From the NCBI RefSeq assembly GCF_006345805.1, contig NC_043011.1:10788001-10852000 (forward strand): a stretch of DNA of 64,000 nt, given 5' to 3'. The position numbers and the translations under genes are program-made. Position 1 is the stretch's first letter. Every line of letters starts with the position of its first letter. Source of the DNA: Octopus sinensis. Taxonomy: Eukaryota. Shown here piece by piece: positions 16,388 to 36,470 of this stretch. The notes below the pieces were generated by a model that was not told the DNA's origin, did no database searches, and saw nothing but the letters and a program-made list of their open reading frames with translations.

Positions 16388-16690
16388 AAGCGATTATGTG
16401 GATAAACAAATTAGATATATTAAATATAACAGTTTGGATATGAAATACAAAATGTTATATATGTATACATACAAAACAAGAGAAAGCAAAGAGTGGAGAT
16501 TTCCAGGTGATTAATTTTAAAGTATAAATATATAGACATTTCGTTTATGGATTTGGTTTGCAAGATTCTTTATGTGATTTCATGTGCTGAAGCATATTTT
16601 GTTGTGTCTGGGGAGAGTCATTCTCTTCTAGTGTCTTATTATTTAACACACTCACTGGTAATGTTTCCACTCATTTACTTTTTCATTTTC

Positions 16691-16727
16691 CTAAAATTTT
16701 CGTTGTAACTTGCAACCTTTTCAATAG
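16691..16727 (-). ncRNA. Minimal hammerhead motif, U3-A8 core variant
   Basis: cta TTGAAAA g gttgc aagtt acaac GAAA at TT tag. Confidence 0.6.
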
Positions 16728-17803
16728 TCATTGACTCTGTCCATTATCTGAGCTGCATCCGTTTTGTTTGTTTGTGCGCATGTGTGTGGGTCAGTGTGTG
16801 TGTGCACACATGTATGTATGTACATACATATGTATGTATGCATGCATGCAAGTGTGTGTATGCATGTATATGTGTGTGTATACCTGTGTCTCCTTGTGTG
16901 TGCATGTCTGAGGGTGCCTGTGTATGGTTTTTTTGTGACTATATAATGTGTCTGTATGTATAGATGTGTGTCTCGATTTGAGTCCTTGTGTGAAGTGAAG
17001 TGTGTGTGTGTGGTCGTGTGTTTCAGTCTTCATTTGTGTATGTGTGTGTATGTGTGCTTGTCTGTTTTTATTACCTATGTACCTATCTGTCTGTATGTCT
17101 ATCTGTTCACTTTCATATCCATTTGCCTACATACATGTACATATACACATGCACACCCACACACATACATTTACATAACAATTCACTAACTATTCTACCT
17201 GTATATAAATATAAACTGTGGGTATTGGGGTAAGAATACCTACTACGTATATTTCCTATTTAGTACTGGGGATGTTTCATTTATGAGGATGTATTCCTGT
17301 ATTTGACTGAGCGTTGGGCCCTTTGGGTGCTTGGATAAAATGCAGATGTCAAGTTAACCCAGGTTGCCTCCATATTGGTCCTTGGCATATTGGTAGAGTA
17401 TAGAGGACTGTTTTTTATTGTCATATTGTCTCAAGTGTTCATTTAGTCTTTCGACAATGCTCCTAGATATCTCTATGTATGTCAAGCACCTTCTATGCAT
17501 CTTATGCTGTAGACTACATTTCTAGTTCTACAGTTAATGCCAGGGCTAATCCTACATACCATGCAGTTATCATTGGTGCATATGGCATTCTCAAAATGGT
17601 ACATCCTACATAGTTGTGATCTGATGGAGTTCCCTGGCTTTTCACCAATCTTAATGTTGAGTTCGAGCTTTCCTAAATCTACAGGTTAGTTCTCCATGGG
17701 CTGTGGCATACAAACATATATGTGTATGCGTGCACACACTGACCCAAACATGTGCACAAACAAACAAAAAGAACGCAGCTCAGCTAATGGACAGTATCAA
17801 CAA

Positions 17804-21241: not shown

Positions 21242-22204
21242 TGTAGTAGTGGTGACAGTCATGCTTCACAATTTTTGACTGTAGCAAGATGATTGATTCT
21301 GTGCTATAAATACAGCTGGGTAGGCTCCAGAGTGCTAGGTTTTGCAAACTGTATTCTGACCAATCAGTGTGTATCACTCATTACTTAAGCTGATTGATTG
21401 GTTGGTTGAGCTGATTGTTTTAGGCATCACGCTTTGTTGGACATGTCAAGAGTCCTGTATCTTGACCCTGGCCGAAGCAGCAATTGTTGGTTATTTTTAG
21501 AAATGTTGTAAATATCCTTTGTCAGAGATTTTTATATTTTTATATTTCAATGTCATCATCATCATTGTCAGCACCTTAATTATTGTTGCTAGTGGTGATG
21601 GTGGTGGCAATAGAACTTTTAACCCTAAATAAGATAATTTTCCTGCTATCTTCATCTTGATCACCTTTAGTATTGTTGTTGTTGTTAGTGGTCATGGTCG
21701 TAGCAGTGAAAGTAGTACCTCTAAGTATTATTATTATTGCTTATTTAGCTTGGGTTTGAATTTATCAATAAAATTATTTTCTCTGATTCTCCTCTCGATT
21801 TCACTTGGGCTGTGTAATTTGTAGAACGGAAATATTATATACATTTTCCGGCCACATGTTGCTAGGTGTTACTCAAAGTATCTGACGGACCTCTGGGTCT
21901 CTAATCTGTTGTCGGTGTACACGTGAGCATTCTGATAGTGCATTTCCCATCTGACCTACATATATTTCTTCACAATTTGGGCATTTGATGCAGTAAATTA
22001 AATTTCTGCTTTTGCAGTTCATATTCGCGTTTGTGAATATTTTCCCGGTTTTTGTGTTTATATATTGACTGGTATGTATGAATTGGCATGTGCCACATCG
22101 GCTATCATTGCATTTAGATACCGTGAATGTTTGGTCTTTGTTGCTAAGGTCAAATTTTGCCTTTGTTAGTAATGTTTTCAAGTTTTTAGGCTGTCTTTTA
22201 CTAA

Positions 22205-24083
22205 AACGATCAAACAATAATAATTAAACAAGCAGATAAAGGTGGTGCAATTGTTATTATGGATACCGAATACTATAAGGATTTGGTTGAAGACCAACTG
22301 AAGGATACAACCTTCTATTGTGAAATACCCGCAAATATAGACCACCACATCATGAAAAAGATCAACAACCTGATCTCAACACACCACAACTCACTTACAG
22401 ATAATGAAAAAGACTACATCACCAATTTCGAACCAAAACCCAGCAACTTCTACGGCTTACCAAAAATACACAAATCAAAAAATATTCAACAGGCAGTAAA
22501 AGAACAAGAAAGTGAGTACATAAAATTACTACATCCAAAAGACCTAAAACTTGGACCTATTATAGCTGGTCCAGCATGCCCTACACACCGTCTAAGCAAT
22601 TTTATTGACATTGTTTTGAAACCACTATGTACTTACATACCCAGTTTCATCGGGATGACATCGACTTCCTGTCTCATCTTCCCAAAACAACAGAAACAAA
22701 TTCAGTTTTACTAAGTTTTGATGTGGTAAGCCTCTACAACCAATATTCCACACGATTAGGAATAAAGGCGATTAAATACTGGTTAGAAAAACATAGAGAA
22801 GTGATTCCTAGCAGATTCACAGTGCCATTTATATTAGACACAGTCAAACTTATTCTAGAAAATAACACATTCTTCTCTCAATGGAAAGAATTACATCCAA
22901 ATTAGAGGCACGGCGACGGGAACGAGTTTGCTCCCGTTTACGCCAACTCTGTAATGGGATACTTAGAACAACAACTCTACCAAGAGGTGGAGGTAAACTA
23001 TGGCACTGGATTTAGAAAGTATATTGAATAGGCATGGAAGAGATCCTAGACGACTGCTTCATAATCTGGACAGAATCTCTAAATACTCTGGAAGAGTTCA
23101 ATATCCTCCTGAACAACCTACACCCATCTCTCCAATATACAAAGGAGATGAATAGTACCAAATTACCATTCCTAGATATAATGGTAATTAAAAAAGACAC
23201 CACCATCACCACAGCTATATACTATAAACACACAGACACACATCAAAATTTTAAGTCGTGCCATCCACCACATACAAAACGTAACATCCCATACTGCCTA
23301 GCCAGAAGAATTTGTACCATTGTAGAAGATGCAAATATCAGGAACAAACGCCTAATAGAACTAAGAGAATTTTTGCTCAAACAAAAATACCCATCTCTAC
23401 TTATAGAAAATGGCATACAGCGGGCTATAAAAATACCCATACAACAACTTAGGACACCCAAGGAAGAAGGAAAACAAGAACAAGTCATACCATTCATAGT
23501 GACACACAACCCATGTCACCAGAATATCTTCAACATTGCCAAAGCAAACCTACCAATCATTGCCCAAAGTAATGAATTAAAAGACATAATCACGGATCGA
23601 GCTATGGTGCTTAGTAAAAGACAGCCTAAAAACTTGAAAACATTACTAACAAAGGCAAAATTTGACCTTAGCAACAAAGACCAAACATTCACGGTATCTA
23701 AATGCAATGATAGCCGATGTGGCACATGCCAATTCATACATACCAGTCAATATATAAACACAAAAACCGGGAAAATATTCACAAACGCGAATATGAACTG
23801 CAAAAGCAGAAATTTAATTTACTGCATCAAATGCCCAAATTGTGAAGAAATATATGTAGGTCAGATGGGAAATGCACTATCAGAATGCTCACGTGTACAC
23901 CGACAACAGATTAGAGACCCAGAGGTCCGTCAGATACCTTTGAGTAACCACCTAGCAACATGTGGCCGGAAAATGTATATAATATTTCCGTTCTACAAAT
24001 TACACAGCCCAAGTGAAATCGAGAGGAGAATCAGAGAAAATAATTTTATTGATAAATTCAAACCCAAGCTAAATAAGCAATAA
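22205..24083 (+). pseudogene. PLE RT/GIY-YIG ORF with several frameshifts (ORF pieces 22259-22714, 22627-22905, 23034-24083)
   Basis: Contiguous PLE motifs across frames; the breaks I inspected look like 1-nt deletions (e.g. WKR[F]LDD). Confidence 0.9.
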
Positions 24084-32148: not shown

Positions 32149-34539
32149 CTAGCAGAATTGCCCGGCGATGCTCGGGGCTGAATTGCTTGAAAGTACTGTT
32201 AATGATTGCACTGAATTATGATGATTATTCAGGCAAATATTGATATAAGCTTACGGTGGGAGATAAGGACTTAACGATCAAACGTGTGCCATTGCATTGT
32301 TTTGGCGGAACCAAATTTCTAATGAGCATTATAGGGGCACCAACTTTAAGTTTGAGAATGTGTGGTGGTAGTCCGGTGGGGCTCAAAGGAATTGAGTACC
32401 TCTATTGGATAGTTGATGACGTCCTCTGGGTCAGGAGTTGTATCGATAGACTTATATACATAGACATCCCCAGGAATGAGTTTTAGAATTTTATCATTAA
32501 TATGGTGAACAGTTTTATTCCTCGGGGCTAGAATAGCCCTTTGGCCAATCCAATCCATATTCTGATAATTAGCTTGTAGATCTGGGAACACTGCATCTCT
32601 GAGATCAGAAGGCGTTTTAACAATGGTACAAATGGAATCGATAGCAATATTACCATTTTCATCCCCTGGTATTTTGCCTTCGCCAAGTGCAAGGAGGGTG
32701 TGAGAAAATGCTGCTGATGTGATATTACGTCGCATATGAGCACGCATATTGGTGTGAAGTTTGAGAGTCTTCACCAGTGGCCACAATGTGGATGACTTAA
32801 GACACGCACTTACTGCATCAGTTCTAGTCCCTTTGGGAATAACAGGAAGTGTTTGTCGGAAATCCCCTGAAAGAAGAAGTGTTATGCCACCCATGGGAGC
32901 TGAAGAGTGTTTGATGTCTCTGAGAGATCTATCTAGTGCCTCAATAGCACCTCTGTGGGCCATCGTGCATTCATCCCAAACGATAAGCTTGCATCGTCTG
33001 AAGACTTCTGCCTGATCGGAGCTGTTACTGATGTTGCAAGTTGGTGTCTCAGTCTTCGCTAAGTCAAGCGGAAGCTTGAAAGTGGAGTGAGCTGTCCTGC
33101 CGCCTGGCAACAAAGTAGCCACAATTCCAGATGATGCCACAGCTAGGGCAATGCCTTGTGTTCGTCTAATCTCAGCCAATATTAATTTGTTGAGAAAAGT
33201 TTTCCCAGTGCCCCCAGGAGCGTCCAGGAAAAATATCCCCACAGCTTTGGCCCGGACTGAATTAACAACGGAGTTGTAAGCGAACTTCTGTTCTGGAAGG
33301 AGCTTTGGCTCATTGTCGGCTATGTACTCGACATTAAAACATGTCTCACGCAACAAATGTGAAGACAGAGTGTTTGTGCCTTCCCGGTTTGTTGAAGGTA
33401 GGCCATAGACCGGCAAGGCACTACCGCCCATATCAAGTACAGTATCTTTGAACGTAGTTTGTTACCACACAGCCACACCTGCTCCTATGTATATGTGTGT
33501 GTGTGTGTATGTACATGTGTGTGTATGGGTAGATATATTATGCATGTATATATGTGTATATATATATATATATATGTGTACATATTACATGTACATCTAT
33601 ATATATATATACATCTACACATAAAATACAAAATAGAAAGTTATATCTTGATATCGCTAGTGATAACAATACTCAAAATATATAACAGACTGGAATTGTA
33701 GGCCCGTCTCTTGCAATTTCGATCAATTGGATCTTGTCTCCCTCTTGTATAGAAGTGTACGGCTGCAGCGAAATTCATTTTTGGACTTTCTTCTATCGAA
33801 GGCATTTTAACAAAAATGCTTCCGTAAAGACGGCGAAAATATTGTCAATTTCCCCAAAAAGGGACACAATTCAATTTGAAAACAATAACGAAAGCCCCTT
33901 CTCCGAAAGGGGGAGGGTTACGATTTACAATTATTTAACAAATGCAACACAACAACGTTTCCCTGACGAGGAACCAACAAACGTGATTACAATAGTCAAA
34001 CAGTAATAATAATAACAACAAACCTTTTTAATGTATCCCCATTTATGTGAAACCACTTATTCAAGTTCAAGTCATTGATGCAATTTTATACGAATTGCTA
34101 ATACACACACACATAATAAGGGTGAAAAATTGAATATTAATTTGATTAATATGAATTGAAATCCAGTGGTGTAGCATATAAGATCACAGCGGATCTTCTT
34201 CTAGCAAAAAGGATGACCAGTATTAATTGCTCATCCCTTTTATATAAATACTTTCACTTTAATTGTTGCACACTTGCAAAGGAGAAAGGAGGAGAAAGTG
34301 TAGTGGTAATGGTAGGAGTGAAGCACTTGAAATGAAAGAGGGAAATCGTAAAATATTTACTTTTCTCGAATTTTTGCTTAATTGGGGGTGAAATTGAAAA
34401 AACTTTACATGCTACGACCCAATGGAATCTACTTGTAAAAATGATAGGTAAATTCCAATTGAAGAAATTCTATATTGTAGAATTGTATAAAAAAACGAAC
34501 AGTTTGGGAGGCAGAGAAAATCTGCCTTTTATCATAAGA
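32149..34539 (-). mobile_element. Internally deleted Helitron with PIF1 helicase segment
   Basis: 3' CCCG..CGGG hairpin plus CTAG at 32149-32152; helicase ORF; candidate 5' TC terminus at 34539 like that at ~36469; linkage of the two halves across 33460-33620 is uncertain. Confidence 0.7.
32346..33431 (-). pseudogene. Helitron PIF1-family helicase fragment (361 aa open)
   Basis: FLDAPGGTGKT (Walker A), AVASSGI, GRTAHSTFKLP, IVWDECTM, GDFRQTLPV, RAILAPRN; no Rep domain. Confidence 0.93.
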
Positions 34540-34934
34540 CTAGCAGTATCGCCCGGCGTAGCTCGGGTTTGTAAGGGAAATAATTATATAAGCATTTTTA
34601 GAGATGTAAAGTATAATAGCCATCTCAATATGGCTAACCACAAAGGGGGAGGGGTGTTACTGTAGCTTTTTACGTTCTGAGATTTAATAATAAATTTTAG
34701 AGAGTTACTTCCCTTATATATGTCAAAAATGGATTAAAAATGGGAAAAATTGATGGTAAATTTTTTTTTAAATCGTAGACTCATCGTAGACGCGCGCTAA
34801 TACCCAGACGGTCTCGATATGAATCACGACTATAAGATACCCGGTTTTGGTTAAACTGCACTGCAAAATGTGGGAGTAGTTAGGAATCTAAATCGTAGGA
34901 GACAGACACACAACCTCACTTTTATATATAAAGA
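34540..34934 (-). mobile_element. Non-autonomous Helitron (395 bp)
   Basis: Minus strand A|TCTTTATATATAAAA...CCCGAGCTACGCCGGGCGATACTGCTAG|T: 5' TC, 3' hairpin + CTAG, AT target, no TSD. Confidence 0.85.
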
Positions 34935-35028
34935 TTTCCTCTATTTACATAATATTGAGGTCTCTTTCTTTCTTTTGTTATCTTACTGTTTTTACCAATA
35001 TACATATATATATATAATATATATATAG

Positions 35029-35350
35029 TTACAGAGATGTACTTGCATAGCAAGTGACTTGATCTGAGATCGTGTGCTGGAACGAAAACAGTTGCAGCGT
35101 TGAAGGTGTTTATAAGCCATTTAAGAAACACACAAAAACCGTTAGATTCACTTCAACATTTAAATTTAATTTGTCAAAATATTTTCGTCGCTTTGAGACC
35201 GCGACCTGTGAGCACGATATTTTTGTCAGTGAACAGGTCGCAGTCTCAAAGCGAGGAAAATATTTTGGCAAATTAAATTTAAATGTTGAAGTGAATCTAA
35301 CGGTTTTTGTGTGTTTCTTAAATGGCTTACAAACACCTTCCACGCTGCAA
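35029..35350. mobile_element. Palindromic fold-back element (arms 35092-35209 / 35233-35350) carrying a hammerhead variant, flanked by (TA)n
   Basis: ~118-bp near-perfect inverted arms; extension on one arm only (35029-35091). Confidence 0.85.
35222..35272 (+). ncRNA. Minimal hammerhead motif, G3-C8 core variant
   Basis: tttgtca GTGAACA g gtcgc agtctcaaa gcgag GAAA atat TT tggcaaa; the opposite arm supplies the perfect gcgac and tgacaaa. Confidence 0.7.
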
Positions 35351-35715
35351 TATATATATACACACAAATATATATATGTATGTATGTATGTATGTGTGTA
35401 TATGTGTATGCATGTATGTGTGTGTGTGTGCGTGTCTGTGCTTGTGATTGTCCTCCACCACTGCTTGACAACGAATGTTGGTTTGTTTACATCCCTGTCA
35501 CCTAGTGGTTTGACAAAGGAAACAGATAGAATAAGTACAATGCTTACAAAAATAAAACTGGAGTTGATTCATTAAACTACAATTCTTCAAGGCATTGCCC
35601 CAGCATGGCCACAGACCAATGGCTTGAAAAAGCAGAAGAATAAAAGAATACATTCTCTGCTTTGGTCTTATGTTCAAGGCATGAGAAAGCTTGAGTTTAC
35701 ATGAGAAGGCCTAAC

Positions 35716-36000
35716 AGACCTGGTAGAAACAGCAGCCAAATCTCCCTCAAATCACACCTCATTGTCTTATGTATGTATATATATATGAGCCAATGAGGGG
35801 GACCTCTACATGGTAGCTAGACCTGGTAGAAATAGCAGCCAAATTTCCCCCAAATCACACCTTACTGTCTTATCTATGTATATATGTATGTATGAGCCTA
35901 TGAGGGAGACCCCTACATGGCAGCTAGACATGGTAGAAATAGCAGCCAAACCTCCCTCAAATCACACCTTACTGTCTTATGTATGTATATATATATATAT
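35716..36000. repeat. Tandem repeat, ~3 units of 103-107 bp
   Basis: AGAC(C/A)TGGTAGAAA(C/T)AGCAGCCAAA..AAATCACACC starts at 35716, 35819 and 35926. Confidence 0.9.
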
Positions 36001-36299
36001 ACAAGCCACTACGGTTATTTAATGTAAAGTCTTCCTCAAATCACGCTCTCACTATTTACTCTCTTCCAAGAACATTTTCACTCACTCTTATCTGTTAGCT
36101 TCCCATACATTTTACTCATGTATCTATCAGCGTCATAGACAGAAACAAATATTACATCGCCATCGCATTCTATTGTCTACCTGTCAACACACAGTGAATT
36201 AGTTTCAGTTTATTCGTTGCACACTGTGTGTGTGCGTTTGCGTGTGCTGTAACCCAAACTAAGAAAAGCATTTGACATATACACCAGAATGTGAGTTTT

Positions 36300-36470
36300 C
36301 TCTAAATTTTGCTTAATTGGGGTTGAAATTTTAAAAAGCGGACCTGGAAAAACCCGATGCATTCTACTCTTAAAAATGCTAGGTAAATTGTAATTGAAGA
36401 AATCCTATATTGTAGATTTCTATAACTGACAAAGGGAGGCAGATAAAATCTGCCTTTTATAATAAGAGAT
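36300..36470 (-). mobile_element. Helitron 5'-terminal fragment (same family as 34360-34539)
   Basis: Shared GGGAGGCAGA.AAAATCTGCCTTTTAT.ATAAGA terminus and upstream sequence. Confidence 0.6.

Follow-up and report, generated by a model that had tools for sequence, protein, structure and literature searches.

Evidence that an octopus palindrome derives from a Penelope-like element whose terminal repeat has a G3-C8 hammerhead motif

Hammerhead motifs in Penelope-like elements

Minimal type I hammerheads have been described in the pseudo-LTRs (pLTRs) of Penelope-like elements (PLEs), and natural covariation to a U3-A8 pair is reported for those of S. mansoni (Cervera and de la Pena 2014, PMC4209133). 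Natural core variants of hammerheads show the same pair-keeping covariation of positions 3 and 8, there as U3-A8 only (Perreault et al. 2011, PMC3088659). The tertiary pair between C3 and G8 was proven earlier by laboratory swaps and, for PLEs, the C3G/G8C double mutant partly rescues the hammerhead of PAc, a Poseidon element of Anolis (Frangieh et al. 2024, PMC11167929). Insertion of PAc in vitro does not need cleavage, according to the same source. A G3-C8 variant is reported to work better without C17, with data not shown there (PMC3884650). Among PLEs with a C-terminal endonuclease (EN+), Neptune and Nematis combine a reverse transcriptase (RT), a CX2-5CxxC linker and a CCHH GIY-YIG endonuclease, and canonical members are without an IFD (Craig et al. 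2021, PMC8557442).

The locus described here lies in a window of 64,000 nucleotides from Octopus sinensis, which is the whole stretch of DNA that was analysed. The motif of its family has the type I layout, the extra base between A9 and stem II, the G10.1-C11.1 pair, the palindromic loop III, the terminal-repeat position and the opposite-strand pairs of the published PLE hammerheads (PMC4209133). It differs from them in its G3-C8 core, in an extra base that is G where their consensus has H, and in a stem I of 7 bp and a stem II of 5 bp, compared with 4-5 and 7-8 bp in S. mansoni. Like PAc (PMC11167929), the octopus element has its 3' ends at two fixed points within the likely ORF start (the tail), AT-rich targets and copies that appear to come from uncleaved RNA. 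Its tail is about 63 nt long rather than 30-40, its likely ORF start lies about 56 nt after the predicted cut site rather than in stem II, and it belongs to a different PLE clade; the G3-C8 pair is natural in octopus, whereas in PAc it is a partly active laboratory double mutant. By motif comparison only, the octopus protein resembles Neptune and Nematis (PMC8557442), and the insertions share with them an inverted, 5'-truncated partner and a tail at one end. Unlike Neptune and Nematis, the octopus clade has a spacing of about 131 aa between RT motifs A and B (IFD-like) and a DKSG motif, and its GAIG motif B is absent from the supplementary alignments of Craig et al.

PLE hammerheads and the natural U3-A8 pair are already published; the present analysis adds the parent element, a three-state series at positions 3 and 8 within one clade and the Helitron-like carrier. 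No natural G3-C8 hammerhead was found in the literature searched, a scope that some key hammerhead papers fall outside, and the text passages and supplement of an O. vulgaris repeat paper (PMC13282606) hold no mention of hammerheads.

The palindrome and its damaged hammerhead

An inverted-repeat check of the window found 118-nt arms at 35092-35209 and 35233-35350 that are 96% complementary. The palindrome is asymmetric, with a 63-nt extension (35029-35091) on the left arm only. Its features are as follows.

35029..35209, minus strand: inverted arm, corresponding to PLE terminal-repeat unit positions 30-208 and running to the long 3' end (tail 35029-35091); blastn against the intact unit L056, 95.6%
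35170..35209, minus strand: hammerhead remnant with N7-C8-A9, stem II, GAAA, loop III, UH and the 3' strand of stem I, without positions 3-6; from the sequence
35211..35350, plus strand: direct arm, corresponding to unit positions 9-146 and running to the short 3' end; blastn, 92.9%
35222..35272, plus strand: minimal type I hammerhead fold; from the sequence and folds
35222-35228/35266-35272, plus strand: stem I of this fold
35237-35241/35251-35255, plus strand: stem II, with C11.1 changed to G at 35255
35229, 35234, 35235, 35236 and 35256-35259, plus strand: core of the fold, being G3, C8, A9, the extra G and GAAA
35260-35263, 35264 and 35265, plus strand: palindromic loop, U16.1 and U17, with a predicted cut after 35265
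35322..35350, plus strand: likely first PLE ORF codons (MAYKHLPRC...) within the terminal repeat; from N-terminal peptide likeness

The right arm, on the plus strand, contains stem I, GTGAACA, the extra G, stem II, GAAA, ATAT, UU and the stem I partner, and GTGAACAG is present once in the window, at 35229 (+). The change of C11.1 costs this arm its G10.1-C11.1 pair, leaving G.G at these positions, and an A>G change leaves a G.U pair in stem I; the fold has a z score of -1.0. The left arm, on the minus strand, is perfect from N7 on and retains C8, A9, stem II, GAAA and the 3' strand of stem I, with core positions 3-6 replaced at the junction, and it contains no intact hammerhead. A descriptor open to any Watson-Crick 3-8 pair found no intact hammerhead in the window. 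An Rfam scan of the window returned no hammerhead match at E<=10 and scored the palindrome only as a plant miRNA hairpin, below threshold.

A preliminary description of this DNA, made from its letters, had combined the arms into one hammerhead. That motif was drawn from both arms and is thus an assembled sequence, absent from the window as written although it exists intact elsewhere in the genome. The arms do not make up a single ribozyme, the left being without positions 3-6 and the right without G10.1-C11.1, while the observation that both arms have C8 and A9 was correct (in the right arm at 35234 and 35235). A transcript of either strand is predicted to form a single hairpin of about -200 kcal/mol, in which the hammerhead motif would be buried, and the window copy is damaged and likely inactive. 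Its long end is on the inverted arm and its short end on the direct arm, inside a (TA)n tract; this end layout matches the PLE layout described by Craig et al. and Frangieh et al.

The G3-C8 motif across the family

The combined 45-nt motif has 447 exact matches in the genome, a set that leaves out copies in the Helitron-like composite described below through the motif's last letters; the reversed control has 0. When positions 3, 7 and 8 were left free, 1062 matches were obtained, which are partly non-independent (on contig C1, 24 of 76 belong to the composite). G3 is present in 1024 of them, and inspection of every one of the other 38 found C3-G8 in none; C8 is present in 93 among the first 100 of the 1062 matches listed. 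A set of 42 copies, selected through upstream or endonuclease sequence and not through the motif, has G3 in 40, C3 in none, C8 in 33 and G8 in 3. These counts bear out the earlier view that G3-C8 is a family state and not decay. It is also the consensus in contigs of four organisms.

In place of the canonical core C3-U4-G5-A6-N7-G8-A9, the family has G3 and C8 and keeps U4, G5, A6 and A9, so the consensus is not CTGANGA. A Watson-Crick 3-8 pair is possible, as G-C in this family and as U-A and C-G in relatives. G12-A13-A14-A15.1, U16.1 and H17 are present in 38-41 of the 42 copies per position. Intact copies are predicted to form stems I and II with G10.1-C11.1, pair probabilities being mostly >0.9 and the fold z score -2.4, and loop III is palindromic (AAUAUU). 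Among 20000 dinucleotide shuffles of the unit none folds as well by the criterion of a stem II of at least 5, a stem I of at least 7 and any Watson-Crick 3-8 pair, and 9 of 20000 pass a looser test. No compensatory change was seen inside the G3-C8 family, where variation is mostly CpG decay. Searches based on CUGANGA undercount hammerheads.

The terminal-repeat unit and its parent element

The terminal-repeat unit is about 207 nt long. Its ends were analysed in 40 insertions, which are 44 loci minus 4 duplicates. The 5' start lies 19-25 nt upstream of G3 in 24 of the 40, and further upstream in 2 only; the 3' ends fall into two fixed classes about 63 nt apart. An inverted partner is present in 21 of the 40 and a single arm in 19, and 17 of the 21 two-armed insertions have one long and one short end, with two alike in none. 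Target-site duplications (TSDs) are 9-16 bp, and a TSD score of at least 9 was obtained for 19 of the 40 insertions, compared with 3% of 400 mismatched controls. Translated, the last 90 nt of the unit give a peptide similar to the beginning of the ORF in relatives, and the two 3' ends are therefore likely to be sites where RT starts internally, as it does in PAc. In the same place behind the hammerheads of three relatives, N-terminal peptides resemble the MAYKHLPRC... peptide. The preferred 5' boundary, 21 nt upstream of G3 (L109-L128), resembles a 3' splice site in having CTAAC, a pyrimidine tract and AG; it could instead be a transcription start or an RT stop.

Loose ends of RNA reads led to an upstream motif with 160 genomic matches. 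Upstream of the unit at one locus (L119) is a decayed GIY-YIG frame, and a search with this frame gave 40 scored matches of 306 candidates. At 30 endonuclease loci, the unit is downstream of the endonuclease on the same strand in 14, and no direct unit was found within 1.5 kb at the other 16; an inverted unit stands upstream of a 5'-truncated copy in 6 of the 30. In four loci (L160-L163), RT motifs, a CxxxCxxC linker and a CCHH GIY-YIG precede the unit by about 1.2 kb. The RVT_1 profile match is weak (E 0.005), and L162 gave no GIY-YIG domain call in Pfam. One of the four, L163, has the inverted-plus-direct layout of the window with the ORF included. Parent frames are broken and 5'-truncated (the longest clean frame is 352 aa), and no full-length copy flanked by two direct pLTRs was found in the G3-C8 family.

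Other routes to the parent were rejected. The loose end of a read behind the unit, seemingly a continuation of the ORF, had 0 genomic matches, and same-strand motif pairs 0.4-5 kb apart, taken as pLTR pairs, were repeats of the composite instead. A generic GIY-YIG search gave 147 matches, with the unit within 1.5 kb in none of the 30 loci read.

An RT and a CCHH GIY-YIG linked to the unit, with an inverted 5'-truncated partner and an optional tail, are the features of C-terminal EN+ PLEs. The proposal that the MITE-looking palindrome is PLE-derived is supported by this linkage, by the TSDs and by the unequal arms. The parent PLE called for in the preliminary description has been found as an ORF beside the unit and not as an intact full-length element.

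Two other observations concern coding sequences. Upstream of a parent copy is an intron-less caspase-like frame of 312 aa (L162:28-963, by eye). The window has two weak GIY-YIG-like matches in opposite orientation, at 21876-22127 (-) and 23688-23936 (+), with E about 2e-4.

Related families and the 3-8 pair

In a sister family with 50% endonuclease identity, U3 and A8 are each present in 18 of 19 copies. The motif of this sister family, in the same place, is ACTA-UUGAAAA-G-GUUGC..GCAAC-GAAA-AU-UU-UAGU, and compared with the G3-C8 family both bases differ at three pairs of stem I and one of stem II, the homology of stem I being assumed from position. A third family (L199-L227) is young and abundant, with 150 scored copies at 92-98% protein identity and a 1120-aa frame at one locus (L224). 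It has C3-G8 in 22 of 23 copies and C at position 9 in 23 of 23, 2 of 25 loci being without a match, and in its motif loop III is not palindromic and stem I holds a mismatch. For a related element, matches to an Octopus vulgaris protein reach 98%.

Metagenomic relatives (L188, L191, L192 and L193) have C3-G8, and a tandem pLTR junction is present in L188. An alignment-based scan gave 12 loci, and 4 of the 8 closest had a descriptor match with C3-G8; of the other closest loci, L194 and, with U4G, L189 have a motif recognised by eye, and L187 and L190 end before the motif. The three octopus families all retain U4, G5, A6, G12-A15.1 and U16.1, and two of them also retain A9. In a tree the three octopus families are separate, with the U3-A8 and A9C families joined (88/98) and the position of the G3-C8 family left open.

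With G3-C8, U3-A8 and C3-G8 families and relatives in one clade, the 3-8 pair thus covaries naturally within it. The occurrence of C3-G8 in the third family and in the metagenomic relatives, together with the tree, makes C3-G8 the likely ancestral state. The suggestion of a fixed compensatory swap agrees with the other Watson-Crick 3-8 pairs in relatives, but a direct path from C3-G8 to G3-C8 is one we only infer, because the tree does not settle the nearest relative and the sister family is U3-A8. Catalysis may be relaxed in the octopus clade, as the young third family is abundant despite A9C, its non-palindromic loop and its stem I mismatch. The natural G3-C8 family beside its U3-A8 and C3-G8 relatives is evolution's version of the laboratory swap experiment. 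The series speaks for selection on the catalytic fold of PLE terminal repeats, and provides a matched natural set for asking whether PLE hammerheads must cleave.

A Helitron-like carrier

Around the palindrome, about 1.9 kb of sequence is common to the best 30 palindrome matches, and this defines a composite element.

34540..36469, minus strand: 1.93-kb composite with Helitron-like ends and the palindrome as cargo; common to the best 30 loci
34540..34568, minus strand: Helitron-like 3' end, a GC-rich hairpin and then CTAG; from the sequence

Helitrons have a 5' TC and a 3' hairpin followed by CTRR, and insert between A and T. Among the best 30 loci the left end carries A|CTAG and a hairpin in 28, and the fixed right end or its hairpin is seen in 23. 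We take these ends to be Helitron-like and the composite to be a non-autonomous Helitron under that rule. Its junction has 494 exact copies, sometimes in tandem. Near-identical palindromes have been multiplied as composite cargo and are therefore not independent evidence. The C11.1 change is present in all 28 readable right arms of the best 30 loci while other composite copies keep C, which indicates that the damage arose after capture; it did not stop the composite from spreading.

Inside the composite, after a stretch that is presumably SINE-like, are three direct repeats of about 105 nt (35716-35996). An older copy (78%) of the composite's right-end region abuts its left end at 34361-34539 and suggests insertion next to a related Helitron-like end.

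Proposed mechanism and alternatives

We consider it probable that the palindrome consists of two copies of the octopus PLE terminal repeat, one inverted and one direct, with a G3-C8 fold that is likely derived and compensated, intact copies that would cleave weakly and a window copy that is likely inactive. The PLE protein would nick AT-rich DNA and reverse-transcribe uncleaved RNA, RT starting at two internal sites in the first ORF codons, one for each arm. Two cDNAs primed at the staggered nick would then join head to head. In the intact motif G3 would pair with C8, as happens in the double mutant made in the laboratory, and weak cleavage would occur after U17, either in a dimer held together by the palindromic AAUAUU or with help from protein. 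One insertion in a (TA)n tract would later have been captured and multiplied by the Helitron-like composite. The laboratory report of better activity without C17 fits the U17 of the octopus motif. In the predicted ground state, however, G3 is paired with U17, which lengthens stem I, and the best cofold is favoured by 5 kcal/mol over a dimer designed to be active. The chances that intact family copies self-cleave are about even, and cleavage by the window copy is clearly unlikely.

A serious alternative, which we hold to be possible but short of probable, is that the motif is hammerhead-derived and no longer cleaves, being kept as a protein-binding or RT-positioning element or as the hitchhiker of a master copy. 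The third family spreads well with A9C; nearly all copies begin upstream of the motif and so were made from uncleaved RNA; and hammerhead mutants leave PAc insertion unaffected (PMC11167929). RNA-seq reads (three runs of one study) come from both strands and show no pile-ups of starts or ends, an absence of cut ends that fits a non-cleaving motif, although standard reads are uninformative on self-cleavage. Against loss of function, two families have changed both positions 3 and 8 and both have kept a Watson-Crick pair, for which we estimate a chance of about 1 in 9 under uniform change, and most of the remaining core is kept across the three octopus families.

Long inverted arms and hundreds of near-identical palindromes would also be expected of a MITE, a DNA transposon with an incidental likeness to a hammerhead. 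Such elements have terminal inverted repeats that are fixed and symmetric and a TSD that is short and fixed. The insertions have neither: nearly half consist of one arm only, the arms differ in length and are truncated to varying extents, the unit stands at the end of RT/EN copies, and the identical palindromes have their flanks in common, leaving this reading with almost no likelihood. A circular-RNA retrozyme, amplified by its own cleavage and ligation, would account for a short, non-coding, abundant unit bearing a hammerhead, and retrozymes have been linked to PLEs (bioRxiv 10.64898/2026.07.22.740005). It is nevertheless very unlikely, since the head-to-tail units, each with a hammerhead, of non-LTR retrozymes are missing among the 44 loci, the copy ends are not at the cleavage site and the tandem cases checked are repeats of the composite. 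MITE-like palindromes in cephalopod repeat libraries can thus be PLE ends.

Returning to the PLE-derived palindrome, a wider proposal is put forward more tentatively. One octopus PLE clade may hold working natural hammerheads with G-C, U-A and C-G pairs at 3-8, of which the G3-C8 form would cleave with the element's protein or as a dimer, be tuned by U17 and escape standard descriptors; the clade would be an unnamed C-terminal-endonuclease group with an insertion in the RT fingers. A motif A-B spacing of 131-133 aa and DKSG are seen in C-terminal-endonuclease PLE RTs (P0001, P0004, P0006, P0007, P0009, P0010 and L224); the long spacing may be an IFD-like insertion, and the clade is possibly unnamed.

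Several further copies were noted. The window holds a 5'-truncated copy of the U3-A8 sister PLE at 16540-17676 (-), with its endonuclease at 17676-17245 and a hammerhead fold at 16690-16728 that has one stem II and one stem I defect. A clade relative in a single contig (L189:1730-1780) combines C3-G8 with a G at position 4. A U3-A8 hammerhead, in this case without the extra base, is also present in a PLE family that is more distant (L070, L079, L083-L085), and a canonical C3-G8 minimal hammerhead occurs in another repeat family (L062:2460).
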